Shown here piece by piece: positions 3,601 to 61,460 of a stretch of 64,000 nucleotides of DNA. Both the position numbers and the translations under genes were made by a program. Numbering within the stretch: position 1 is the stretch's first letter; every line of letters begins with the position of its first letter. The notes beneath the pieces are model-generated. The model saw only the letters and a program-made list of their open reading frames with translations, was not told the DNA's origin and did no database searches. The stretch comes from Lingula anatina (Eukaryota > Animalia > Brachiopoda): the NCBI GenBank assembly GCA_051362555.1, contig CM120643.1, forward strand, positions 28,896,848 to 28,960,847. Direction: 5' to 3'.

Positions 3601-5281
3601 GAAAGAAAAGGTTCAGTTCAGTTTCAACTGTGGTGTCTGGGGGTGGCTTAAGGTGGAAATTAAACTGCCAAGAAAAATAATATCAAATTTTCAATTTAAA
3701 TATAAAAATGTGTGCCATTATATAACATTTACCACACAGAAAAACCAGGAGGGAGCCTCAATGTTGTATCAAACAATGACACCAGGTGTGACAGGCCAGC
3801 TATATGTATAAAGCTTACAGAAAGTACAGAACAAGCCTGCATTGATGACAGAAAAATAAACCCCTCAAACAGCCAAACAGTCAAACCAGGAAGTAACCTC
3901 AAAATGTTATTTAACATTGACTACAGGTACAATAACCCTCTAACTCAATTGAAACAGGGTGAGAAAACAATATCCACCTCAGGTAAACCAAAGTCTACAA
4001 GAGCACAGGCTGTTGGACATAAAAGAAAACACTCAATTTCTTCAAGATCAGGGTTTTAGAAGATCACCGTGTGCTGTGGCACATGGACGTTACCATGTTC
4101 CTGTTCATTTTTGCCATGGGTTTCAGCACTAGAATGAATCTACCTGTTGAGGCACAGGTTACAGGTGAGTCCAATTAAAAAAAGACAACATCCAACTGTT
4201 TGACGGATAAAAGGCCCCAGGTTAGTGCAATAGAATATATGTAAATTATAAATGTTAGCAATAAAACAGAATTTAAATATTATAACATTCCCTTACAAGA
4301 CATGTGGATGGTGCCCACCCAGACATTTGTTGTCTTTATATCTTTGCAATCTGGTTGGACAAGGGAAATTCATTACTTTTGACATATACATATCTGCACA
4401 ATTATCTAATATATCTTTACCTTAATAACTATTTCCAAACTATCTACTGCCTTCATAAAGTTCAGACTTCTTAAAACTTTATCCAAACGACTTTTTAAAA
4501 GTTTGTGCAAACTTAATAGAAAATATGAGTTAAAAATATTCCACATCATATTTTAGAACAATCCATCATCATCAGTGTCACTTTAACTTCTCTATATTTG
4601 CTCTTGCAGAAATGTTTAGAAGGTCAAGCTGTAAAGGAGATGCCATGGTTCTCATGTGTCCCCAAGGGTCCAGTATCACAGTACTTGAGGCTGTGTATGG
4701 TTACACATTATCAACAGACCACAACTGTGCTGAGGGCAGTCCACCATACTGCAATGTGAACCTCCCAACTGACATACAGCTTACCTGTGATCACAAAGAA
4801 AACTGTACTTTTATTGCAGAATCCAGACATGCTTCATATTGGTTAGGTTGTCCATATAACTTGACCAACAACCTTATTGTTACTTATACCTGCTCTGGGA
4901 TGACACTAACAACTAAAACAACAACAGTGTCTTCCTCCTCACCAGCCACCATTACAGTATACCCAACATACCGCTTTACTTCCCCAGTATCTGCTACAAG
5001 TGCACAGAAAACAACAGCAACAGAGACAGCAAAGCAAGGAAATCCTGAAACAGCCCTTCCTTTTACTAGTTCTATTACAATTATAGGTACTATTTCTGAT
5101 ACTTTAGGATCCACAGTAAACACTTTAAATCCTATAAGAAACTTAAGGATTGATGGAATTCAATGTATGTAATGTAACTTAATACAAGGTCATCAACTTA
5201 TGAGTTAATGCTATTAATTCATAAAAATACATCAGGACAAAGGTGACAGCAATATTGCATTTTTGGTAAAAACTATGACAT

Positions 5282-5352
<71 letters not shown>

Positions 5353-8300
5353 TAGATAACAATTTGAGTCTTTTACAGCACAGTATATCCACTGTTTTAG
5401 GTGCTGTCATTGGAGGCACAATTGGAGCCATATCATTGGGGCTGCTGATTTTTAACATAGCTGCTATCTGCTATATAATCAGGTAAATTAAACTTTGAAC
5501 TTTTTCACTTTCTTTAAAAACTTTATCTGTAACAGGAGCAAGGGAGGGCCCCAAAGACCTGAAATGTTTTCAGAACCAAAACTATGTGTGCTAGTCTTCA
5601 AACCTCTTCCTCAGTTCTGTTGCAAACAAGGCTAAAATGGCAAGCTGAGTCTCAAAGCCCTATACAAATGTGTCATAGGTCATGTGACTTTGAGCCCATT
5701 CCCACAGATCTATCTCCCTGGGGAGTCTCACTAAATTGCTGTCAACATGACCGGCTTAAAGTCTGTCAGACCCGGTAAAGCTGTAAGGGGGAAATTATCT
5801 TTATCTCCTAGGTGATTCGGTAGGCATGAAAGACACATAAGCCAGTTATTTGATAGCAATTTAGTGAGACTCCCCAGAGAGTTAGGTCAATTCAGATGGA
5901 TCGATCTAAGTATGGGAACCCAGTCTTAGTGTCTGCTTTTTTCATATCTAAAAAGGTCTAAAGAAGAAGAACATTTACCTAATTAAAAAATAATCTTATA
6001 AAAGTCAGCTGTATCTGAGGATTTTTTTCTTTACCATTGTAGAAAGAAAAGATCTGAAGAAGCTTTACCCAAATCTCCCGACCATTCTGACCAGACCCAT
6101 GGCAACCAAGATAGCAGTGAGGGTGGGGAAAATGTTTATGCACAGTTAGGAGAGCAGGAACCCCAGCAACAATACACTGAGCTTGAACTCCAGAGAAGAG
6201 GTACTCAGTTCTACGAAGAGAAAGAGAGACAGTACGTGAACCAAGCTTTAGCCCAATCTTCGGACTTTTCTGACCAAACCCACTGGAATCAGGCTGATAG
6301 AGAAGGTGGTGAAAATGTTTATGCACAGTTAGGAGAGCAGGAACCCCAGCACCAATACACTGAACTTGAACTCCAGAGAAGAGGTACTCAGTTCTATGAA
6401 GTGAACGAGAGACAGTACGTGAACCAAGGTTTTCAAATGGGTGTTGCTGACAGCCATGGCATATAAAATCAACTTTTTCAAGATCAAACTGATGATACCC
6501 AGAAAATGGACCTACATGAAATCATAACAGCTGAATGTCAGAAGGAACATATCTATATTACGAACATATTTACCAATAGTATACACAACTGTATGGGACA
6601 GTATATACAAGGCAGCAAAGCTGTCAAATGTACAGACAAAAAGCACATAATAAAGATGCACAAAATATATAATTTTGTCCATTTTGATGCAATAATGCTT
6701 ATAACAGCACAAAATAATAATATATAATGCTTAACAGCATAAGCACCATTACTATTGCTTATATGTGGATATATAGAAAATGATACTTGACGCACAGAGC
6801 TTAAGGTGGATGGGAATGAAAAGTCACATCTTGAAAATGCCATTTTGAAAAATGAAAAAAGGAAACATTACAAAAATATTCCAATAAAGCTGCTATTCAG
6901 TGTAGCCATGTTAATATGATATGAATCATCCCACTTGAGTTTGAAGATAATAAGGCACAGACATCTGTGTCTGTACATAAAAACTGGTACTTCAAAACAG
7001 ACCAGCTACATGTATAAAGCTTATTTATGTACAGAACCTGCACCGATGACAACAATGACAAACCACGCAAAGTTCAAATGAACAATGTTCTTTTTTTGTG
7101 ATGCCAAACAGTCAAACCAGGAAGTAACCTCAAAATGATATTTAACATTGACTACTGGTCCAACAATCCTTCAAATCATTTGAAACAGACTTTACACATC
7201 TCAAGTAAAACCAAAGACTACAAAAACAAAAATTGTTGGACACACGATAAAACACTCAATATCTTCAAAATCAGAGTGTAATAAGATCATTATTTGCTGT
7301 GGAACATGGAAGGCAGGTTTCTTGTAATTTTTGTCTTGGGTTTGAGCATTAGACTGGATGTATCTGGTGGGGCACAGGTTACAGGTGAGTGGAACAGAAG
7401 TCAATATAAGTAAATAAACACAGCATTCTTTTATGGAGCATATGGATGATGCCCACACATATATTTATAGACAATCTTCATATTGGGAGTGTTGCAATTT
7501 AGTTTGATGGGGGAATTTTTGAGAAACTTCTGACATATTTTCAGCACAAATGTCTGTGGTAATCCACTCAAAGTATCAACTGTATTCACTATGCTAAAGT
7601 TTTTCAAAACTTTATGGAAATAATGTTTACAGTTTGTGTACACTTTACTGAAAATATGTGTAAAAAACAAATATTCCATGAACTGTTTGTTATAAAACTT
7701 ATGTTAGAACAATATATACTGTCAATGTCACTGCAAATACTTTCTCTGTTTTTGTTTTTGCTCTTGCAGGTAATATTACAGTAGCAAGCTGTGAGGGAGA
7801 TGTCTTGTTTCTTATGTGTCCCCCAGGGTATCATATCACAGTACTTAGGGCAGTGTATGGCTACACACTATCCACACACAATAACTGTTCTGAGGGAAGC
7901 ATGCCAGAGTGTAACAGAAACCTACCATTTACCATACAGTTGTTCTGTGATAACAGAGAAAACTGTAGTTTTTTAACAGAAGCCAGATTTGTGCCACAAG
8001 GGTCTGGTTGTCCATCTAGCAGAACCAACAACCTTATGATTACATATACCTGTTCAGGGATAACAACAACAACAACAACAACAACAGTGTCTTCCTCCTC
8101 ACCAGCCACCATTACAGTAGCCCCAACATACCACCACACTTCTCTAGTATCTACAACTTTGGTTACTGCTACAAGTACACAGAAAACAACAGTGAAAGAG
8201 ACAACAAAGCAAGGAAACACAGAAACAGCCCTGTCTTTTACCAATTCTATTACCATTATAGGTACTATTTCTGATACTTTAGGATCCACAGTAAACACTT

Positions 8301-11300
8301 TAAATCCTATAAGAAACTGAAGGATGCATACAAAGTCAATTTTTTGTCACAAAAACCAACCAAATGCCAGCATATAGTTTTAAGTAGTATAACTAAGAGA
8401 ATTGCAGAAAGGCAATGTTTAATTTTACCCGAAAATGATGTTTGAACGGGATTTTTCTGCTAGTAGTAGGCTTGTTAAGGACCAAAAAATGGACAAACGC
8501 TGTGTGACGATGTAGTGTGTTAGCTGAGATTATTTTATATTGCTACCGGTAGATGTCTCTGTAAGTAAAGTGTTGTCCGGTGTGCAAGTTTGAATCTCTC
8601 CCGTGATTGGTAACCTAAAGGTAAAACTGTTCACTGTATAGTTGGTTCTGATTGGTAAACGTGTACTATCTGAACTTGTATATAAGGTGTAACGTGAAAT
8701 AAATCGGTCTCTTTGGCTTCTCTCTCTAGCCTCTTTGCGGCTGACTCTTTGGCTCTTTGGCTTCTTTGCGGATCTTTGAGACTCTCTCTATTTATACTCT
8801 GAGACACCAGTAAGTAGCCTACATTGTTATTTGTACCTTCATAAGGCACTCGGCCGCGAAGGCGTAACAATTGGCGCAGCCGACAGGATAGAGTTTGTGT
8901 TGCTTATTAATTGACAGGATAGAATTTTGTGAAGCTAACGTTGTCAATTTACGGGATAGAATTTGTGTAGCTTGTGTAGTTAGAGGATAGAATTAGTAGT
9001 TATTAGTGATATTGGAATTTTTGAAAAGCTTTGTGTATGGCTGAGTGAGAGTTGGAAAGATAGTGACACGTGTTAGTCGGGACTTGTTGCAAGACGCGAA
9101 CTAGTCGGAACATATTGCAGTGATATTTCATTTTCATTGTTGTTTGATACTCGCGGCAATTCAGTAAATATTGTCAAAGTAGTATTCATTTTAGTAGTTT
9201 AGAGATATTTTGTATTAATTTTCTGTTGTGAAACTACACCTGCGGAGATATAGTGGACCACGTGTACTGAGAAGTAGTCGGAAAGACCACGTGTACTGAG
9301 TAGTAGTCGGACAGACCACGTGTAATTACAGGCCAGTGCGTGTAGAGCCTTATGTTGTAATTGGAATACAGAACATAATTTAGTGAGTTTATTTACAAAG
9401 AAAAGCATTTATTTAAAATAAAGGTTTCAAATTTGTGTTTTTCACTGACTTGCTGAATGAAGGAGTGATTGTGAATTGTTTATTGTATATTTTTATCAAT
9501 ATTGCAATAGCATATATTGATAGAGTACTATTCTACCTTGTTCGTCTGTGTTGAAAGTGTTTCATCATAGGTGTACATGTGAGTAGGTTGAATAGTGTGA
9601 GAAATTTGTTTGTATTTACTGTGAAGTTTAGTAGTGGCTTTTTGCTGAAACTTTCTTCAAACAGTAAAGTGTGGTAGTGGTGAAAGTATTTTATTGTGTA
9701 GTTTTTGTGGCACAGCTGCATTGCTATTATCAATAAAATTGTGTAATAGGTTGTGGGAAACTGGAAGTGAAAATGGCGTCGGGTAACGTAGAAAGCAGTG
9801 TTGTGTTGAATGTGCAGACAGCGTCTGAGACAGAATTGAAAAATTTGAAAGGAATTGGTCCAGTGAAAGCTCATAGATTGGTGTCTTTGAGAAATCAAAA
9901 AGGAAAATTGCTGTTGAGTGATTTGGAAGAAATCACTGGTATTAGTGTAGCAGAATGGCAGAAATGGGAAAAGAAGGGTAATGTGATTCTGGGTGTAATG
10001 GAAGAAAAAGATGGTTCAAAAGTTGGAGATGAAAAAAAGGAAGAGAGTGTGAATTGGGAAGAAAAGTATAGAAAGTTGATGGAGCGAGTGAAGGTACAAA
10101 ATGAAATGATATCAAATCTTCGAGATGAGGTTGAAGAAGCTGGAGAAAAGATGGAATTTTTATCAAGTGAATTGGAGATAAATGATGCTAAAGTGAAAAA
10201 GTTGGAAAATGAAAAGAGTGAATGGGAAAAAGAGAAATATGCTTTGGAAAATGAAAAGTATAGTTTGGAAAATGAGAAGTGTGATTTGAAAAATGAAAAT
10301 GATATGTTGAAAGAAAGAAATGTGAAAATTCAGAGTGAGTTGGGAAAAACTAAACAAGTGTTGATGAAAAAAGAAATGGAAATGGAAGAAGAGTGTCGAG
10401 AGTATTCCACAAAAGAAATGATGTTACATACACAGGTTGAAACACAGAATGAATTGTTGAGAAAACGTGTAGAAAGTTTGCAGAAGTGTGAAATTGAAAA
10501 AATGGATTTGAAATTGCAATTGGATGAGATGACAGCCCGTCATGATCATTTGCAAATTCAGTATGAAAGAATGCATTTACAGCATGATTTAGAAAAAATT
10601 CCAAGGCCAACTCCTAGAAATATTAAAACTACTAGACCCACACCTGCACCTAGAAGTAGTAAAAAGAAAAGTTTGGAAACCCCTGTGAAAAAACCAATAC
10701 TGAAACTAGCAGAGAGTGAAAGTGATAGTGAAAGTGAAAGTGAATCTGAATGTGAACAGAAAAGAGTTCCTTTAGTTGAAAGAGAAAAAGGACCTGTTCA
10801 TAAAATGCCTAGTTTTAGTGGGAATGGAAGAGAAAATTGGGAAGCTTTTGTATTTAAATTTGAAGGAATGGCAGAAAGATACGGATGGAATGATAAAAGA
10901 AAAACTAGCAGAATGATTGAATGTTTGGAAGACAGAGCTCTTGAGTATGCGGTGGAGTTTGGAAACTGCAAATATAAACGTTTGAAAGAAGTGATGTCAA
11001 AACGTTTTAGTATGAAAGAGTCTGCTTCATCTGCGCGTAGAGCACTTCAATCAATGAGGCAGGGTGAAAGTGAATCTTTGCAAGATTTTTCTCATCGTGT
11101 GTTCATGGCATCTAGAGAGGGATATGCAGAAGGTGGTGAGGGAATAGCTGTGGATTCATTTTTGAGAGGGTGTCGTGACAAAGAATCTGCAAAATTGGCT
11201 ATGGATAAAGAGCCTAAAGATTTATTTGAAGCGTTAGAGTTTGTGAAAGTTGCAAACAATAACTTCAAAGCTGTGTATGGTACAGGTGGAAGAAATGTGC

Positions 11301-14300
11301 ATATTAGACAAGTTGGAATGTCTGATCAGAGTGTGGAGAATGGAAGTGGAAATCAATTACTCTACAACATGCAAAGAACCATGTCTGCAATGTGTGATCA
11401 GATGAAAAGAATGAATGACACATGGGTGTCACCGTCAAATTCTCAGAGAAATTCTGGTAGAATGATAAAGTCGCCCCAGAATGGAAACATAAATCAAAGT
11501 AGAGGGGGTCCACCACAATGTTTTAAATGTGGAGAAAGAGGTCATGTTCAAAGGGATTGTAAGAATGAAAATGTAGAACATCCACCTAATCCCAATGTTA
11601 GTAAAAATGCCAGCCCAAGTTCTATTTTGATTTGTAATAAATGTGGACAAAGAGGTCACATTCAAACAAATTGCCCTCAAAATAGAGAAATGCCAAAGAA
11701 TCCTCCTCCCGGTGCAAGAAATTCGGTAAACTAGAACGGGACGAATTGACCGACCGGATTTCGGATCCCTTACTTCATGTTGAAGGTCGGATTATGGATA
11801 GTGGAAATGTGAAAATGATGAATGTTGGAGAGTTAGTAGGAGAAAATTTTGTGATTCCTGTTAGTGTAGGTGGTGTGAAAACATTAGCAGTTGTGGATAC
11901 GGCAGCTCAATTTACTATCGTAAATAAAAGATTTTATAGTAAATTGCAGGGTGTGCCTGAGTTTTGTGAGAATTTGAAATTAATGCTTGCTGGAAAAAAT
12001 GCATTTATGATGGGTCATAGAGTAGAAAATTTGAGTATTGAGATAGATGGGATAGAGTATAAGGAAAATGTGTATGTTGCAGATTTGCAAGAAGGAATTG
12101 ATATGTTGTTGGGATTGAAGTTTTTGAAGGAGAGAAATTGTGTGGTGAATTTAGTTGATCAAACATTGATCATTGGAGAGAAATGTGTGCAGGGAAGCAT
12201 AGAAGTTGAAGGTGACTCTGATTTGAGTAAAGTGAATGGTGAGACAGAAGCTAAAAGTGATGAGAGATGTGTTGATGAAATGGAGAGAGAAGTTGAAATT
12301 TGTGAAAATATGGTGAGAACGAAAAAGAGAATAGTAGTTCCTCCATTGACGGTGATGAAAATTTCTGTTTGTGCAGATTATGAGTTAGAGAAAAAGAAAG
12401 AGTATGTGATAGAACCTTGTGTTGATAGACAAGTGTTGGTATCTTGTGCATTAGTTAAAGGTGATGATGTTGTTCCTATAGAGATAGTGAATGATGGAGA
12501 AAGAAATGCTGTTTTGAAAGCAGGTAGTGTGTTAGGTGTTATTAAGGAAGTTGAGACAGTTGATTCTGAAGTGAGATGTGAAGATGTAGATGGAAAAGCT
12601 AGGGTGTCTGCTGTGAATAAAGTTGAAATGAAGTTGAATATAGATGAAAATGTGGATGAAGAAGAAGTGATGAGAAGTTTGAAAAGAGATTTGCCTGAAC
12701 ATTTGCAAAATTTATTTGAAAGGTCAAGTGAGGATCTTGATTCAAATGAAATGGTTGCATTGTGTGAAACTTTGAGAGATTATGAAGATGTATTTGCAAA
12801 GCATGATCTTGATTTAGGATGCATGAAAGGTGTTAAGCATACTATTAACACTGGTAGTGCAGCTCCTGTGAAACAGAAATTGCGTAGAACTCCATTGGGA
12901 ATGGAAGGAGAAGAGAGAAAGATGCTTGAAAAGTTGTTAGCTTCTGATGTTATTCAGCCATCAAATTCTGAATGGGCATCCCCACCAGTATTGATAAGAA
13001 AGAAAGATGGAAGTGTTAGATGGTGTGTGGATTATAGGGAATTAAATAAGAAAACTATCAAAGATTCTTATCCTATTCCAAACATTGGTGATTGTTTAGA
13101 TTGTCTGGCTGGAAATCAATTTTTGAGTTTGATTGATATGGCTCAAGGATATTTTCAAATTGAAATTGATGAGAAAGATAGAAATAAAACTGCTTTTATC
13201 ACCAGATATGGTCTGTATGAGCATAAGAGAATGGCTATGGGACTTACCAATTCTCCTGCAAGTTTTTCGAGAGCAATGCAGTTAGTATTGAGAGGTTTGA
13301 CTTGGGAGAAAGTGTTGGTGTATCTGGATGATATCACAGTGTTGGGAAAGAATTTTGAAGATCATCTTAAGAATTTGAAAGAGGTTTTGGAGAGATTGCG
13401 TTCTTACAACTTGAAGTTAAAGCCTAAGAAATGTTTTCTTTTCCAAACAAAGTGTGAATTCTTAGGAAAGTCAATCAGTAGAGAAGGTGTTGGTATAACT
13501 GAGAGTAAAGTTGAGTGTGTTAAAAAGTGGCCAGTACCTACAAACAAAAAGGAAGTTGAAACATTCCTTGGTTTCATCAATTATCATAGAGATCATATTC
13601 CTCAATTTGCTGAGAAAACTGCTTGTTTGTATGAGTTGACAGGGATTAAAAGTGTTTTCAATTGGTCAAATGAACATCAAATAGCATTTGAAAGTTTAAA
13701 ACAAGAGTTAACAACTGCCCCTTGTTTAGCCTTTCCTTTGTCTGAAGGTGAATTTATACTTGATACAGATGCATCATATTCATGTATAGGAGCAGAACTT
13801 TCACAGATACAACATGGTGAAGAGAAGGTTATTGCTTATGGAAGTAAAATTATGTCACCTATACAGCGGCGTTATTGTACAACTAGAAAAGAGCTCTTGG
13901 CTGTTGTAAACTTCTGTAGACAATATAGACATTATTTGTTGGGAAGAAAGTTCAGAATCCGAACAGATCATCATAGTTTAGTGTGGTTGTTAGGATTTAA
14001 AAACCCAGATGGTCAGTTAGCAAGATGGTTAGAAGAATTATCTCAATATAATTTTACCATTGAACATAGACCAGGAAAGAAGCATGGAAATGCAGATGCA
14101 TTATCAAGAATACCTTTAGCTATGAAAGTGTGTGATTGCTATAAGGTGGGAGTGAAATTGAGTGACTTACCCTGTGAAGGATGTCATTATTGTCAGAGAG
14201 TACATAAAAATTGGTCAAGGTTTGAGACTGATGTGAATGATGTAATTCCTCTGGGAAATAAGAAATCAGATGACAATGTAGTTGAATTGAATGTAGTTGG

Positions 14301-17300
14301 TGATATGAGAAATGAAACAAATTGTGAGAAATTGAGTTCAGTTTTGATGTGTCAGAGGGCTGATACAAATGATAAAACTGACAAGAATGAAAGAGATGAA
14401 TTATGCAATTGGTTGAAAGGATATGACTTGAAAAAATTGCAGAGAAAAGATGCAGATTTGAAAATACTCATAGGTTGGTTAGAGAATGGTGAACCTAAAG
14501 AATCAGAGTTGTATTTGTGTAGTATGGCAGTAAAAGGATTGTGGAATTGCAAAGAGCAGTTGATTCTTTTGAATGATGTGTTATATTACAAATGGGAAGA
14601 AAGAGAGGATAGAAATTTGTGTTTAATTGTACCAAAAGATTTGGTCAATGAAGTTTTATTTTTCTGTCATGATTCAAAAACAGCTGGTCATTTTGCTTAT
14701 GAGAAAACTTTGCAAAAACTCAAACAATCATTCAAGTGGCATGGAATGAATAGAGATTGTAAATTGTATGTAAGTTCATGTGAACTTTGCAATAAAAACA
14801 AGCATAGTACTGTTCGACCAAAAGCCAAAATGAAATTACATCATGCAGGATTTCCTATGGAAAAGGTTCATTTAGATATACTTGGACCATTTACACAAAG
14901 TGAATTTGGAAATTCTTATATTTTGGTGATGATAGATCAGTTTACTAAATGGATAGAGTGTGTGGCATTGCCAAATCAGACAGCTGAATTAGTAGCAAAA
15001 GCATTTTTTGAAAAATTCATAGTTACTTTTGGTTGTCCACAAGAGATATATACAGATCAGGGTTCAAATTTTCAAAGTAGTCTATTTAGAAATTTGTGTA
15101 GACTATTAGAAATCAAACAACTTAGAACAACTGGTTTTAGAGCAAGTGCTAATGGACAAGTTGAAAGATGCATGGGTATTATTACACAGATGATTAGATG
15201 TAATGTAGAAGGGAATGTGAGATATTGGGATAGAGATTTACCTCAATTAGTTATGGCATTACATTCAACTGTGAATGCATCAACAGGGTTTACTCCTAAC
15301 ATGATGATGTTAGGGAGAGAAGTTTTTATGCCATTACACTTACTAACAGGTTGTGTGAATGAAAATTTGATACCATGTGATACTCATGAATGGTTGAGAA
15401 ACTTGAGTGAAAGCCTAAATAGATCACATGAAATGGCTAGAGAAAAATTGAAATGTGTGCAGAAACGTCAAAAACAATTGTACGATGCAAAGTTGAGAGA
15501 GAATGAATATACTTGTGGTCAGAAAGTATATTTGAAGGATGAAAGTCATAAAAAGGGAGAAAGTAAGAAACTTAGACCCTTATATAGAGGACCATATGAG
15601 GTTATCAAAGCATCCCCACCTCTCTATACAATAAAAGATAAAAAAGGAAAAATCCAAGTGGTACATCATGATAGATTGAGAAAATTTGTTGAAAGAGAGA
15701 GTGATTTTCAATTGAATGAACCACAATTGGTAGAACCAATTGTAAAAAGATCAAGATTTGGTAGACAAATTAAAATGCCATCTCATTTAAGAGATTTTGC
15801 GTTAGAATGATCATATTGATGTATATTTAGTTTATTAGTCAAGGTATAGTTGTATATAAATACTTCCTTAATTTTCGGCAGTGCTGAAATAAAAGGAATT
15901 TAATTTAATTTATTTATTTGTATTTTTTTTATTTTTTTTATTTAGAACATGGATGAATCAAACATTATGCACATCTGGGAAGAAGAGTTTCAATGGTGCA
16001 CAGATTGGGTTGAATCTCCAGAACGTTTATATATACTCTCAATCAGAAACATTGAAATAAAAAGTTCAAAACAAGCCAAAATAATCATCCATTTAGGAAA
16101 AATATGGAGAGAGAGATGTTTGTTAGAGACGGGTTATGATTGGTTCATGGACCACGAGAAAGAAATAAACAAAGAATTATCTAAAGAAGATTGTATTGAT
16201 ATTATTTGTTATCTCAGAGACAAACTCTATCAGTATTAAAATATTAGAAAAAATAAACAAGATAATAAAGATATATTTGATGAAGTATATTATAGTTTGT
16301 ACTTCCTATTATATTTCAGGTAATTTGATCAAAACAACAGTCCAAGTTGGTATAGGTTTTCTAAATATTTGTTCGAATTTTATTGTTGAGCATGTTACAT
16401 TGAGCACTGCATGAATAGATTGATAGCTACTTTTGTTTTTTTTTTTGGATTATGGTTATTAAAAAAAAAAAAAAAAAAAAAAAAATTACCTAACATAGTT
16501 ACACTGTTCAAACTAATATGTTGCAGTTGAGCATGTGTTTTGCATGTAAGGTAATTGGATTGGATATTGTTAAGGTAATTTTTTCTTATTATATATTTTC
16601 ATGATAAAGTTTTTCATAGATTTAATATAAAAAGCAATTTAACTTTGCTTTTGATTTGAATAATTGTACATAGTTAATGCGGCAATGCTGTGTTACTATG
16701 TTAGTAATGTAATGCTATGCTGATAGTGTAATACTGTGTTGATAATGTAAAATTATGTTAATATTCATTTGAAAGAAAAGCTCATTATCATGTATGTTCA
16801 TTCAAGAAAATAAACCATTGTATAAGTTTATTTCAGATATGGATGATCTAGACATGTTAGATGAAGCCTGTTTTGTCCCGGATTATGATGACACTGATTT
16901 GGTGGAAGATCCTACTGTCCTAATTGGTGAAGAGGGGGAGGAAGTTACCCACTCAAAGTGCAGAGGGGAGGAACGGAGGAGAGAAGTCCTGTGTGGTTTG
17001 TGTCTGGTGTCCAGTGCTGACCTGAGTAGACATCTTGGACGTCATGTGAAATCTGTTCATTTGCCATGGTATATGACTCCAGGATTGGTGTGCTGGTATT
17101 GCAGATCGATGGAAAAGGACAATTCGCTTTTACGTAAACGTCATGGTGATGTTCATTTGTGTGGAACTGGTGAATTCGAGGAAAAACTGTGGATCCAGTT
17201 GGTGAATGGATTTATACATTTCCTGATATTGACATTAAATATGAGAAATATATGGGAGCTGATGGACTATGTGAAAAGTGAAGGACTAGTAATGTTGCCA

Positions 17301-20300
17301 GATAACTGTTCCAAGGAGGACATTAACTTTGTGAAAATATACATTCATGGAAATGGTATGGAGCCTAAGACTGAGATTCTGAATTCTTTGTTGACTTTGT
17401 TTCACTGGAAAACTTTGTATCATCTGTTACAAAAACTTTCATCAGAGGATCGTGAACTCTGTAGTCATTGGTATCGGCGGATGAAATTTACTTTGCTACA
17501 TGGATGAAAAATGAACTATATAATGATTTTGACATTTCACATTGACATTGTTATCATTAATAATGTTGTTTTGAGCAACTTTGAGTTAAAATCACTTTGT
17601 TTGCTTTTAAAGTTGATTTAAAGTGATAATGGATTTAAAACTTTGTTTTGCATTCCTAAGGATGGACATTTATGCTGAGAGATGGACTTGATTGACTTTG
17701 CTTGTGTTAAAGATAAATGTTGAATCTTGGCATAACAAGAATGACTTATTTGCATTACTTGCGTATTTTAAATGTAAAGTACCATTTCAGTTGTTGAATT
17801 ATAATAATTATTAGTTTAACAATTTAAAGTAATGGTTTATATTGTAATAATAGGGGGGAGTTTTGTTCGTCAAAAGGGGGGAGAGTGTGACGATGTAGTG
17901 TGTTAGCTGAGATTATTTTATATTGCTACCGGTAGATGTCTCTGTAAGTAAAGTGTTGTCCGGTGTGCAAGTTTGAATCTCTCCCGTGATTGGTAACCTA
18001 AAGGTAAAACTGTTCACTGTATAGTTGGTTCTGATTGGTAAACGTGTACTATCTGAACTTGTATATAAGGTGTAACGTGAAATAAATCGGTCTCTTTGGC
18101 TTCTCTCTCTAGCCTCTTTGCGGCTGACTCTTTGGCTCTTTGGCTTCTTTGCGGATCTTTGAGACTCTCTCTATTTATACTCTGAGACACCAGTAAGTAG
18201 CCTACATTGTTATTTGTACCTTCATAAGGCACTCGGCCGCGAAGGCGTAACAGCTGCATTTTGTAGTACAAATGTCTAACTTGGCATAAATGTTCCTTGG
18301 GCCAAAAGAAATTTTTTTATCCAAAGAGACGTGCTCTATCGATGCATAAATTAGCATAAATTATGCAAATTGGGTGCCAAAATATATTATATTTCACATT
18401 TCAATTAATTTTTGGCCTAGAAACATGTACAGATTATCAAACCTGACTAAATTAGGGACAAGGAACCCATTTTTGATCATTGGAAGCAACTGGTGGCCAT
18501 TTTGTGCCTCAAATCCAAGATGGCCGCCACCTGCACTTTTGAAAGTGGACCTTATTTTTGCTATTTTATGTTGAATTTTGAAGCGTTTGGTCTATATATA
18601 CTTGATATATATATCGATTCCTACCATTTTGGGGATGCAAAAGTCATTTTTGATATTGTTATGGTGATAGTAGGTGATTTAAAGGGACAAAGAGGGTGTT
18701 TTAAGTGCCTACCAAGATATGTGTGAACGCTGCAAAACCATGGATATTGATAACCCGTATTCAAATATATCTCAATGCAATTTTTGTGATGTACCTGTAT
18801 AACCATCGCTATTGGACTATATTATGAGCAAAAAACAAATTTCACCATTATGGAGGCCATTGGTGGCCGTTTTATCCCTCAAATCCAATATGGCCGCCAA
18901 AAACCATTTTGAAATTGCACCCTCTTTGGCCCTTCAAATTACCTACTATCATCAAAACAATATCAAAAATGCATCCCCAAAATAGTAGGAATCGATATAT
19001 ATATAAAGTATATATAGACCAAACGCTTCAAAATTCAACATAAAATAGCAAAATTATGGTTTACATGTGTTACTGGGAATCCACGCTCCACCGATGCCTG
19101 GTTCGTATGTACCTTTAAGGATTGGTGGAATTCAATGTATGTAATATAACTTGATACAACATAATCAACTTTTAGCCTTGTTTGCATAAAAAACTGGTAC
19201 CTCAAAACAGACCAGCTACATGTATAAAGCTTATAAATGTACAGAACCTGCACTGACGACGACAATGACAAACCACTTAAACTTTGATTGAATTATGTTC
19301 TTCTTTGTTGTGCCAAACAGTCAAACCAGGAAGTGACCCCAAACTGATATTTAACATTGACTACAGGTACAGCAATCCTTTAAATCAATTGAAACAGGCT
19401 TAAACAGCAATATACTTCTCAAGACTACCAAAGTCTACAAAACCAAAAATTGTTGCACACATGAAAAAACGCTCAATTTCTTCAAAATCAAAGTGTAATA
19501 AGATCAATATTTGTTGAGGAACATGGAAGGCAGGTTTCTTGTAATTTTTGTATTGGGTTTGAGCACTAGACTGTATGTATTTGTTGGGGCACAGGTTACA
19601 GGTGAGTAGAACCAGTGTATGAAATGGCCGCCAGCCCGCCAGCCCGAGGCTGGTAACTTTCAGGCCGGGCGGGTAAGATTTACAAATTACCCGCCCGACG
19701 GGCTGGCTATTTTTATAGCCTATTTTCAACTTTTATTTTGTCTATGTTCACAAGCGATTTCAGCAAAATATCAAACCAACTCACTGTTTTCACCCACTTT
19801 CATAGAAGCAAAGAACTAACCATAGCTTGCAATCGAACGCTCATATCGAAATGTAACCAAGTCTCCCTCTCAGTGGCCTAGTTTTCAAAGTTCCGTCTGT
19901 GTTATATGAAGTTGAAAGACAATTTGAAACGAGGCACATTGTTCTTAACCAGCTTCAGTGCACAGTAGATAACGTTACGTCATTGTTTTGTGTAGAGGAG
20001 ATACCACGAGTAGCAATTTGTAGGTTGAGAGTTATAAAAATGTGAAAATATAAAAAGTTATGATATTGATTAAATAGACTTACAGGTACATGAAGTGCTT
20101 ATAATCAACAGTAACTAGAGGATCAGAGAGGCGATACCGCCTCCGAATATTGTACCACCAGCTGGAGTAAGCGCATTCGTATAGACCCCCACATACACAA
20201 AATAAGGGACAAAGCCACCAGTCTTGTGCTTGACAAGCTGTAAAAATGCAATCAACAAGAATTTTCAAAATATGCAAAAAATATATATAACTAAAAATGG

Positions 20301-23300: not shown

Positions 23301-24346
23301 AAGTCAATATCAGTAAATAAACACAGCATTCCTTTATGGAGCATATGGAAGTTGCCCACACATATATTTTAAGTTAATTCTTCTTATTGGGAGTTTTGCT
23401 ATTTAGTTTAATGGAGGAAATTCAAAACTTCTGACATATTTTCAGCACAGATGTTTACGTTAATCCCTGCAAAGTATCAAATGCATTCAGATTTTTCAAA
23501 ACTTTATAGAAATGGCATTTCTACAATTTTTGCACACTTTATAGAAAATATGAGTAAAAAGCAAATATTACATTCACTAGCTGTTTGTTATAAAATATAT
23601 GTTATAAAACACACTGTCAATGCCACTGCAACTTCTTTCTCTGTTTCTGTTTTTGCAGGTCATATTACAGTATCAAGCTGTGAGGGAGATGTCATGGTTC
23701 TTATGTGTCCCCCAGGGTCCAGTATCACAGTACTTGAGGCATTGTTTGGATATACATTATCAACAAACAACAATTGTTCTGAGGACAGTATACCAGAGTG
23801 CACTAGAAACTTCCCAACTGACACACAGTTGCTCTGTGATCACAGAGAAAGCTGCAGTATTATTGCGGTGTCCAGATATGTGTCACCTGGGCCTGGTTGT
23901 CCATCTAACTGGACCAACAGCCTTATGATTACTTATACCTGCTCTGGGATGACAATAACATCTACAACAACAACAACAACAACAGCGTCTTCCTCGTCAC
24001 CAGCCACTATTACAGTCACCCCAACATACCAATTCACTTCCCCAACTCTGGTTACTGCTACTAGTACAAAAGAAACACCAGCAATTACAGAGACAGTAGA
24101 GCAAGGAAACCCTGACATAGCCCTGCCTTTTACTAGTTCTATTACAATTACAGGTACTATTTCTGATACTTTAGGATCCACAGTAAACACTTTAAATCCT
24201 ATAAGAAACTTAAGGATTGATGGAATTCAATGTATGTAATGTAACTTAATACAACATAACTTATGAGTTAATGCTGTTAATTCATAAAAATACATCAGGG
24301 CAAAGGTGACAGCAACAATGCATTTTTGGTAAAAACTGTGACATTG

Positions 24347-24403
<57 letters not shown>

Positions 24404-27400
24404 GATTTGAGTCTTTGAGTCTTTTACAGCACAGTATATCCACTGTTTTAGGTGCTGTCATTGGAAGCACATTGGGGGCCATATCACTGGTGCTGCTAAT
24501 TTTTAATATAGCTGCTATTTGCTATATATTCAGGTGAATTTAACTTTGAACTTTTTCACTTTCTTTAAAAGCTTTATCTGTAACAAGAGCCGTGAAGGGC
24601 CCCAAAGACCTGAAATGTTTTCAGAACCAAAATTATGAGTGCTAGTCTTCAAAGCTCTTTCTCAGCCCTGTTGCAAATAAGGCTAAAATGACAAGCTGAG
24701 TCTCAAAGCCCTATACATATGTGTCATAGGTCATGTGACTTCGACACCATTCCCACAGATATTTGGATCAATCTATCTCCCTGGGGAATCTGACTAAATT
24801 GCTGTCAACTTAACCGGCTTAAATGTCTGTCAGACCCGGTAACGCTGTTAGGGGGTAATTATCTGTACCTCCTAGGTGATTCAGCAGGCGTGACAGACAT
24901 ATAAGCCGGTTATTTGATACACGTAGCAATTTAGTGAGACTACTCAAAGAGTTAGATTGATTCAGATGAATCGATCTAACTATGGGAACCCAGTCTTAGT
25001 GTCTGCTTTTTTCATATCCAAAAAGGTCTAAAGAAGTAAAACATTTACTTCATTAAAAAATAATCTTATAAAAGTCAGCTGTATCTGAGGATTTTTTTCT
25101 TTACCATTGTAGAAATAAAAGATTTGAAGCTTTACCCAAATCTCCCGACCATTCTGACCAGACCCATGGCAACCAAGATAGCAGTGAGGGTGGTGAAAAT
25201 GTTTATGCACAGTTAGGAGAGCAGGAACCACAGCAACAATACACTGAACTTGAACTCCAGAGAAGAGGTACTCAGTTCCACAAAGAGAACGAGAGACAGT
25301 ACGTAAACCAAGCTTTACCCCAATCTTCAGACAACTCTGACCAAATCCACAGGAATCAGGCTGATAGAGAAGGTGGTGAAAATACTTATGCACAGTTAGG
25401 AGAGCAGGAACCCCAGCACCAATACACTGAACTTGAACTCCAGAGAAGAGGTACTCAGTTCTACGAAGTGAACGAGAGACAGTACGTGAACCAAGGTTTT
25501 CAAATGGGTATTGCTGACAGCCATGGCATATAAAATCAACTTTTTCAAGATCAAACTGACGATACCCAGAAAATGGACCTATATGAAATCATGACAGCTG
25601 AATGTCAGAAGGAACATATCTATATTACGAACATATTTACCAATAGTATACACAACTGTATGGGACAGTGTGAACAAGGCAGCTGTCAAATGTACAGACA
25701 AAAAGCACACAATAAAGATGCACAAAATATATCATTTTGTCCATTTTGATGCAATAATGCTTATAACAGCACAAAATAATAATACATAATGCTTAATAGC
25801 ATAAACACCATTACTATTGCTTATGTGGTAATACAGACAAATGTTACTTGTACAGAGCTTCTGGTGGATGGGGGTGAAAAGTCACATCTTGAAAATGCCA
25901 GTTTGAAAAATGAAAATTTAAAAAAGGAAATATTACCAAAATATGCCAATAAAGCTGCTATTCAATCCAGCTGTATTGACATGATATGAATCCCACTTGA
26001 GTTTGAAGATAATAAGGCACAGACATCTGTGTCTGTACATAAAAATTAGTACTTCAAAACAGACCAGCTACACGTATAAAGCTTATAAATGTACAGAACC
26101 TGCATTGATGACAACAATGAAAAACCACTCACAGTTCAAATGAACTATGTTCTTTTTTGTTATGCAAAATAGTCAAACCAGGAAGTAACTTCAAAATGAT
26201 ATTTAACATTGACTACTGATCCAACAATCCTTCAAATCAATTGAAACAGACTTTACACATCTCAAGAAAACCAAAGTCTACAAAAACAAAAATTGTTGGA
26301 CACACGATAAAACGCTCAATTTCTTCCAAATCAGAGTGTAATAAGATCATTATTTGCTGTGGAACATGGAAGGCACATTTCTTTTTATTTTTGTCTTTGG
26401 TTTGAGCACTAGACTGGATGTATCTGGTGGGGCACAGGCTACAGGTGAGTGGAACAGACTAGTAAGAAGTTTTAACTATTATACTAAAATATAAGTAGAT
26501 AAATATGGCCTTCCTTTATAGGACATACGGATGTCTTCATATTCTGAGTGTTGCTGTCTGGTTTAATGGAGGAAATTCAAAACCTACTAACATATTTTCA
26601 GCACAAATGTCTATGGTAATCTATTCAAAATATCAACTGTACTTGTTGAGCTCAGATTTTACAGAAACCATGTTTCTACAGTTTATGCACAATTTATAGG
26701 AAATATGTGTAAAAAACAAATATTCCATGCACTGTTTGTTATGAAATTTACAGAACAATACACTGTCAATGTCACTGCAACTTCTTTCTCTGTTTTCATT
26801 TTTGCTCTTGCAGGTCATATTACAGTAGCAAGCTGTGAGGGAGATGTCACAGTTCTTATGTGTCCCCCTGGGTTCAGTATCACAATAACTGAGGCATTGT
26901 TTGGCTACACACTATCCACAGGCAACAACTGTTCTGAGGGAAGTATACCAGAGTGCAATAGAAACCTACCAGCTACCATAAAACTTATCTGTTATAATAG
27001 AGAAAGCTGCATTTATATCACAGAAAGCAGAATTGTGCCACAAGGGTCTGGTTGTCCATCTAGCAGGACCAATAAACTTATTGCTACATATACCTGCTCA
27101 GGTATGACAATAACAACAACAACAACAGTATCGTCTTTCTCACCATTACATCAGCCACCATTACAGTTACCCCAACATACCAACTCACTTCTCCAGTATC
27201 TACAACTCTAGTTACTGCTACAAGTACACAGAAAACAACAGTGACAGAGTAGCAAAGCATGAAAATCCTGAAACAGCCCTGCCTTTTACTAGTTCTATTT
27301 TCAGTACAGGTGCACGGGGAACTATTATTTCTGATACTTAAGGGGCCAACAGTAACCACAAGAACACCTACATGATATAATCTAAAGTATTTCATGTAAT

Positions 27401-42064: not shown

Positions 42065-61460
<19,396 letters not shown>

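Follow-up and report, generated by a model that had tools for sequence, protein, structure and literature searches.

An intact, young Ty3/Gypsy retrotransposon of the brachiopod Lingula anatina carries two non-env open reading frames (ORFs), ORF A and ORF B, between pol and its 3' long terminal repeat (LTR). It lies in a 64,000-nucleotide stretch of the genome (GenBank assembly GCA_051362555.1, contig CM120643.1), referred to here as the window, whose own numbering is used throughout. To judge by its sequence, ORF B is a conserved, non-env, element-borne gene. On balance we consider it probable that ORF B is a third gene encoding a finger-helix module, mostly fused to a TatD nuclease domain in relatives, likely expressed by splicing and predicted to act as a nuclear nucleic-acid binder. 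Established are the anatomy of the element, the protein family and its place behind pol, the fusion to TatD among relatives and the lack of TatD in the window copy. Taken together, the sequences suggest that there is likely a Gypsy clade with a zinc-finger (ZF)–TatD third gene, probably spliced, of which the window element would be a nuclease-less form.

ORF B belongs to a conserved zinc-finger family

The longest frame around ORF B starts at 16794 (237 aa), while the ATG at 16839 opens the 222-aa frame that the earlier note had reported. We place the start at 16839 because a PDY motif then falls at residue 14, compared with its usual place 8–14 residues from the N-terminus in the family, and because a RefSeq model begins at the same methionine. 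The protein has an acidic N-terminus containing FVPDY, a basic patch, two fingers (ligands C52, C55, H69 and H74; C85, C88, H102 and the following His) and a helical domain that extends up to an HW box.

A full HMMER search of 1.84 billion representatives brought out this family, with 174 homologues of ORF B at E ≤ 1e-3; a word-indexed protein search had returned no relative of similar length and one longer match only. The family figures below rest on the 150 homologues listed, which are mostly 22–41% identical to ORF B. Of these 150, 132 have both fingers; 72 of 121 have a basic patch ahead of finger 1, and F.PDY occurs in 35 of the 114 whose N-terminus could be tested (shuffles give 0.04). 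The acidic N-terminus and Cys/His pattern described in the earlier note are thus real and conserved.

The two units, of the form C-x2-C...H-x3-5-H with conserved ligands, qualify as C2H2 fingers. As a single sequence ORF B gives a weak Pfam finger match (E=0.2), whereas a profile of 44 members matches the tandem C2H2 fingers of CTCF at E=4.5e-5. No Pfam family covers the finger-helix domain above threshold, and ESM Atlas returned only clusters labelled 'hypothetical'. An AlphaFold model built with the family alignment (predicted local distance difference test, pLDDT, 83.8) places a helical domain after the fingers. Fold searches with this model found nothing at E ≤ 0.001 in PDB or BFVD (best Z 2.7); the lack of matches to a predicted model does not establish a new fold. 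ORF B was rejected as an env gene or transmembrane fusogen (maximum 19-residue hydropathy 1.5, no env-family match), and ORF A likewise lacks a strongly hydrophobic segment and an env-family match, in agreement with the non-env status first assigned to both.

The sole close database match of ORF B is LOC106172586 (P0003), a RefSeq protein of L. anatina whose first 50 residues are 84% identical to the ORF B N-terminus and are joined to a VWD-domain protein; from its sequence it would be a chimeric model or an exonised element copy. At 16965–16981, in the basic patch before finger 1, the window carries five clustered G-for-A differences from most transcribed copies, which could reflect RNA editing before reverse transcription, or drift.

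Relatives carry a TatD nuclease that ORF B lacks

A Pfam TatD_DNase domain lies C-terminal to the finger domain in 72 of 149 scanned homologues, which bears out the link to TatD-annotated proteins suggested earlier. Short sequences are common among the remaining 77, and these may be truncated at contig ends or broken. Among the 56 full-length TatD domains (16 shorter or partial ones excluded), the DxHxH, GxHP, GE, Q, H, H and ExDxP residues are kept in 55–56, which points to an active TatD enzyme in the fused relatives. The best solved relatives of the fused domain are YcfH and other TatD proteins, and among cellular TatD proteins TATDN2 may be the closest to the element TatDs.

The C-terminus of ORF B coincides with the border at which TatD would begin. 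ORF B has no TatD domain by Pfam and lacks the DxHxH, GE and ExD residues, as expected from the earlier remark that no nuclease is visible here. Neither tblastn nor a custom profile found a TatD remnant in the window, including the 378-nt 3' untranslated region (UTR) of ORF B. In one relative (L047) the ORF stops ahead of its TatD, showing that some seemingly stand-alone database proteins are broken fusions.

Other architectures were also seen. A NADAR domain is fused N-terminal to the finger module as NADAR-ZF-partial TatD in P0047 and as NADAR-ZF in L017 (357–1793, minus strand). P0004, P0009, P0022, P0028, P0033, P0055 and P0135 are long proteins with 2–6 tandem finger-helix copies, some with B-box or ankyrin repeats, and are possibly host-domesticated.

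The third gene lies behind Gypsy pol

A degenerate DNA motif scan yielded 90 loci (86 metagenome and 4 viral stretches); the family profile matches 29 of these, two only weakly. At least 800 nt of upstream sequence is available for 18 of the family loci, and in 13 of these a same-strand Gypsy pol immediately precedes the gene, compared with 0 of the 61 motif loci without the family domain. In five further loci, whose upstream sequence is short, an LTR-like end and then a primer-binding site (PBS)-like site are seen downstream. PBS-like sequence after an LTR 3' of the third gene was noted in L027, L036, L038, L040, L058, L067 and L074, and suggests that these repeat contigs are collapsed or circularised, or that elements lie in tandem.

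Of the 13 loci linked to pol, ten carry TatD or a remnant, one is cut by a contig end and two (L032 and L034) lack TatD and run to a purine tract as in the window element. L013 is a near-complete gag-pol-ZF/TatD element. The relatives' third gene begins 50–467 nt past the pol stop, and their integrases are 38–52% identical to that of the window element. An integrase tree of 13 rows, built without an outgroup, only from loci of this analysis and omitting L047 as too short, groups the window element with four TatD-bearing elements (100/99), apart from the TatD-less L032 and L034; a reverse transcriptase (RT) tree was largely unresolved. This placement implies that TatD status changed at least twice, and in a tree without an outgroup loss appears the simpler reading. 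A quick finger-domain tree unites the TatD-less L034, P0013 and P0142 in one clade (support 100) and places ORF B near two fusions (support 85). We hold it fairly probable that TatD was lost in the window lineage and separately in others, with the finger module still functional.

Neither the integrase nor ORF A nor the ORF B family had relatives among viral contigs, and the four motif matches there are non-family. Three of 45 motif matches in prokaryote genomes are clear family members (L118, L125 and L131), all on short contigs of metagenome-assembled bacterial genomes and likely animal-host contamination.

Splice signals recur in relatives

On the basis of donor and acceptor signals that recur in relatives, we have reasonable confidence that the third gene is spliced as a subgenomic message. 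The donor reported earlier was found as CCA/GTAAGT at 8810, 131 nt past TATATAA (8679) and 60 nt before the LTR end, with a score of 7.6. Among seven relatives with a recognisable LTR end, five have a donor of score 7.5 or higher within the final 77 nt of the LTR, compared with 6.5% of background windows; two loci (L036 and L038) each had two candidate LTR ends, one of which was chosen.

Acceptors were scored at any of the first three in-frame ATGs in 20 of the 29 family loci (nine excluded because they had no upstream ATG or matched only weakly; L021 and L047 are near-duplicates). With a limit of 6 nt, 10 of these 20 loci have a YAG with a pyrimidine tract next to such an early ATG, where 3.2 would be expected (P=3e-4); a limit of 12 nt raises the count to 14, against an expectation of 4.6 (P=5e-6). 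In the window element the acceptor ahead of ORF B (16836) is middling, at the 83rd percentile of our own acceptor score. By contrast, the T-tract ahead of ORF A, ending at 15945, has 15 pyrimidines in 17 positions and ties for top among the element's YAGs. The signals behind the complex-retrovirus-like layout proposed earlier, a donor in the LTR and an acceptor before the ATG, recur in relatives, while neither predicted junction was listed in the RNA data.

Those data comprise eight shallow RNA runs, of which 6–26% each was read (depth about 1–12; joints listed from three reads up). Depth steps up at the gene in 4/4 runs of one set, from 0–0.65 just before ORF B to 6.6–8.7 over it. In the remaining runs ORF B exceeds pol in three and is about equal to it in X1. 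LTR reads in X1–X3 are mostly first mate on the plus strand and come from diverged LTR variants, some without 5 nt at the donor; they are likely host transcripts reading through other copies.

ORF A is probably a lineage-specific insertion

ORF A has five Trp, is acidic and has no transmembrane segment, and sits behind its acceptor as the earlier note described. A frame of at least 96 aa arose in 6 of 3,000 dinucleotide shuffles of the spacer between pol and ORF B (P≈0.002, uncorrected for the choice of region). ORF A fills the place where the relatives' third gene starts, and ORF B is thereby displaced about 1 kb farther downstream. No ORF A homologue was found in the protein database (near lengths only), the 150 family proteins, the 90 motif loci, Pfam, PDB sequences or viral contigs, and ESM Atlas gave nothing usable; in the 13 relatives linked to pol, the spacer holds no ORF resembling ORF A. 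PHROGs returned one weak match (E=0.03). The codon-position GC pattern is weak, and the single-sequence model is of low confidence (pLDDT 55); its best fold match (MarR-like helices, Z 5.1) was rejected as not meaningful for such a model. With a maximum 19-residue hydropathy of 0.42, ORF A does not resemble the short transmembrane protein of the MDG1 group. RNA reads over it are near zero while both neighbours are covered (mean depth 0–0.18, with 1.1–4.0 at the pol end, in the same set of four runs).

Most likely, ORF A was inserted at the ancestral acceptor in this lineage only; it could be a gene captured not long ago, or an insertion that some copies have and others lack. That it encodes a functional protein is possible, if somewhat doubtful.

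A proposed role for the third gene

We propose the following scheme, whose functional part is tentative and draws on known systems. Splicing from the donor in the LTR, upstream of the PBS, to the acceptor just before the ORF B ATG would likely yield a subgenomic mRNA for the third gene. In its product, the acidic PDY motif would likely serve as a host-factor docking site and the basic patch in nuclear import, while the two fingers, packed on the helical domain, would likely bind nucleic acid, with the element's own as the predicted target. In the fused form, the finger module would aim the nuclease at RNA:DNA structures of the element, such as R-loops at a transcribed copy or replication intermediates. 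Given that human TATDN2 degrades the RNA strand of R-loops (PMC10711561), the fused form would most plausibly trim or clear these structures. The nuclease-less form could instead act as an adaptor that binds element RNA or the LTR and, with its acidic PDY motif, brings in a host factor; genomic RNA would then be produced or exported unspliced even though the LTR has a donor, in the manner of CERV or Rev. The finger module probably has a job of its own because it was retained after nuclease loss in more than one lineage. Of the earlier suggestion of a soluble regulator, a conserved and element-borne ORF B is borne out; since the family normally makes a ZF-TatD fusion, ORF B represents the version of it without a nuclease and not an independent transactivator type.

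A wider picture is speculative and, as a whole, unlikely: a widespread animal Gypsy clade with a captured TatD fused to a previously undescribed finger-helix domain, which uses retrovirus-like splicing and processes its own RNA:DNA structures. Invertebrate 'TATDN2/TatD' genes would then often be element genes, the domain would occur in host-like proteins as well, and the window element would be a derived two-accessory form that dropped the nuclease and uses the finger module as a Rev/Tat-like regulator.

Alternative explanations

Several observations weigh against this account of a spliced, element-borne gene with a function of its own. ORF B sits on a long branch (1.48 versus a median of 0.79 in the quick tree), which fits relaxed selection. 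The finger domain is not confined to elements: seven homologues are multi-copy proteins and five of the 18 informative loci (L015, L017, L024, L052 and L079) have no Gypsy pol upstream. The acceptor and LTR-end rules were chosen after the sequences had been viewed, and a graded acceptor score, high in 7 of 21 loci (window included), differs from all ATGs (P=0.007) but not from non-coding ATGs (P=0.27). Neither LTR-to-acceptor joint called for in the earlier note (8809 to 15946 and 8809 to 16837) was listed in any of the eight shallow runs, 15885–15947 having been skipped as a repeat in mapping, which makes the ORF A junction hard to see. The only reads that break at 16837 (three, in run X5) continue into letters absent from the LTR, and this loose end was accordingly rejected as an LTR exon. 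Finally, most RNA reads derive from diverged copies, with both strands represented and ORF B frameshifted in some, so that the depth step at ORF B could be an artefact of reads mapping poorly to the AT-rich spacer.

The alternative that survives best is that ORF B is a decaying remnant, in which TatD was lost recently, the finger module is no longer needed and the frame is open only because the copy is young. The long branch, the frameshifts at 17069 and 17181 in some transcribed copies, the broken fusions among stand-alone database proteins and the lack of listed junction reads all fit such decay. We nevertheless judge it improbable, since at about 30% identity to the nearest fused relatives ORF B keeps every zinc ligand along with the N-terminal motif and HW box. 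Its end at a domain border, with no trace of TatD in the 3' UTR, and the persistence of an independent TatD-less clade also speak against decay. By analogy, a CERV/Rev-like adaptor or an LTR activator is favoured over the remnant.

Still less probable is that two accessory mRNAs are alternatively spliced from the LTR donor, ORF A and ORF B both being regulators and ORF B a transactivator or anti-silencing factor. The element's strongest acceptor does lie directly ahead of ORF A, whose frame is improbable by chance, and the acidic N-terminus, basic patch and C2H2 pair of ORF B would suit a transcription factor. However, such a scheme is hard to reconcile with an ORF A that has neither a homologue nor a counterpart in pol-linked relatives, a low-confidence model, a weak codon signal and almost no reads between covered neighbours. 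That ORF B is a passenger fragment of a host gene, with its own promoter or host exons and no function in the element, is very improbable: the RefSeq model joining a copy's first 50 codons to a host VWD gene, the three reads joining unplaced letters to the ORF B acceptor and the host-like multi-copy proteins would fit it, but the gene keeps the same place and orientation behind pol in 13 elements with integrases as diverged as those described above.

Element anatomy and surroundings

The complete LTR retrotransposon occupies 8503–18252 of the window, with LTRs, target-site duplication (TSD), PBS and polypurine tract all present (Table 1). Its LTRs are identical and its gag and pol are open, and the element is therefore an intact, very recent insertion; domain annotation of pol gives the Gypsy order. 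The gag N-terminus (9773–9950; 304–430 in L013) matches Pfam HHH_3 at E=1.3e-6 here and E=0.0066 in L013, and a helix-hairpin-helix at the start of gag is possibly a trait of the clade.

The insertion site lies directly past a frame encoding a SUEL-lectin and a Thr-rich stretch (7814–8320), a member of a tandemly duplicated gene array with similar stretches near 4554–5187, 23603–24254 and 26758–27249. A long tandem repeat array with a 48-nt unit occupies 55183–56634.

Table 1. Coordinates of the retrotransposon and its parts in the window
Feature	Position	Strand	Remarks
TSD, left copy	8499–8502		GCTG, 4 bp; right copy at 18253–18256
5' LTR	8503–8869	+	367 nt; TG...CA ends; 100% identical to 3' LTR
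TATATAA and AATAAA	8679 and 8698		both within 5' LTR
Predicted splice donor	8810–8815	+	GTAAGT; near LTR 3' end (putative U5)
PBS	8872–8889	+	begins TGG
gag	9773–11734	+	653 aa; N-terminal helix-hairpin-helix, capsid-like region, two CCHC knuckles
pol	11794–15810	+	1338 aa; protease, RT, RNase H, integrase
Predicted ORF A acceptor	15920–15945	+	strong; 135 nt past pol stop
ORF A	15949–16239	+	96 aa; coding status uncertain
AT-rich spacer	16240–16819	+	AATAAA at 16252 and 16264; long A-run near 16461–16484
Donor-like AG/GTAATT	16320, 16551 and 16575	+	within the AT-rich spacer
Predicted ORF B acceptor	16820–16836	+	
ORF B	16839–17507	+	222 aa; two C2H2-type fingers, helical domain, no TatD
Polypurine tract	17872–17885	+	
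3' LTR	17886–18252	+	

Comparison with known systems

Non-env third genes of LTR retrotransposons are known, although few have conserved, testable biochemistry. The clade described here, which is more striking than the particular copy with its unproven ORF A, carries a TatD nuclease that appears active from its sequence together with an unnamed zinc-finger module, and natural nuclease-less versions separate the two parts. These elements allow one to ask directly what use a retrotransposon has for a DNA/RNA-processing nuclease in addition to RNase H, and how elements without an envelope cope with a splice donor upstream of the packaging region. Some TatD-like 'host genes' in invertebrate annotations may be transposon genes.

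In errantiviruses, env is a third gene expressed from a spliced subgenomic RNA. A small accessory ORF of an envelope-less LTR element, sORF2 of the MDG1 group, is described in PMC11952523. Compared with both, ORF A and ORF B are set apart by the hydropathy and env-family results given above.

Like cellular TatD proteins (bacterial TatD, YcfH and YjjV, human TATDN2 and TATDN3), the C-terminal domain of the relatives is a TatD_DNase with invariant active-site residues. The N-terminus of TATDN2 is disordered, and the accessible portion of PMC12709183, which describes it, makes no mention of transposons; the element family instead has a folded finger module there, and TatD is absent from ORF B. 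In the giant squid Hox cluster, the annotated transposon-like genes include a 'putative deoxyribonuclease TATDN2' (PMC6962438), which may be such an element gene. Our literature searches listed no report of TatD in Gypsy elements; Repbase, Dfam, subscription journals and supplements lay outside their scope, and such elements could be listed in the supplements of PMC6238403 and PMC13524379. In the portions of these papers that were available, TatD and zinc fingers are unmentioned in PMC13524379 and zinc in PMC6238403, while the corresponding portion of PMC8220671 mentions neither a third ORF nor a nuclease.

The closest parallel in gene content is found in LTR retrotransposons of bdelloid rotifers, which, according to PMC5408684, have a non-env ORF3 encoding a DEDDy exonuclease or GDSL esterase, typically expressed from spliced messages. 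Both systems place a captured enzyme, including a 3' exonuclease in rotifers, between pol and the 3' LTR, and in both it was gained or lost across families. They differ in that the nuclease of the relatives described here is TatD, fused to a two-finger helical domain, and that the window copy retains the finger module only.

For the nuclease-less ORF B, the functional model that we favour by analogy is CERV, the accessory protein of Cer1 in Caenorhabditis elegans, which is cysteine-rich, nuclear and made from a spliced mRNA (PMC10309623). As far as the same source describes it, CERV differs in its five-exon mRNA sharing gag exons, its possible C4 finger and its G-protein-like domain, and the likeness to ORF B that we propose is one of function.

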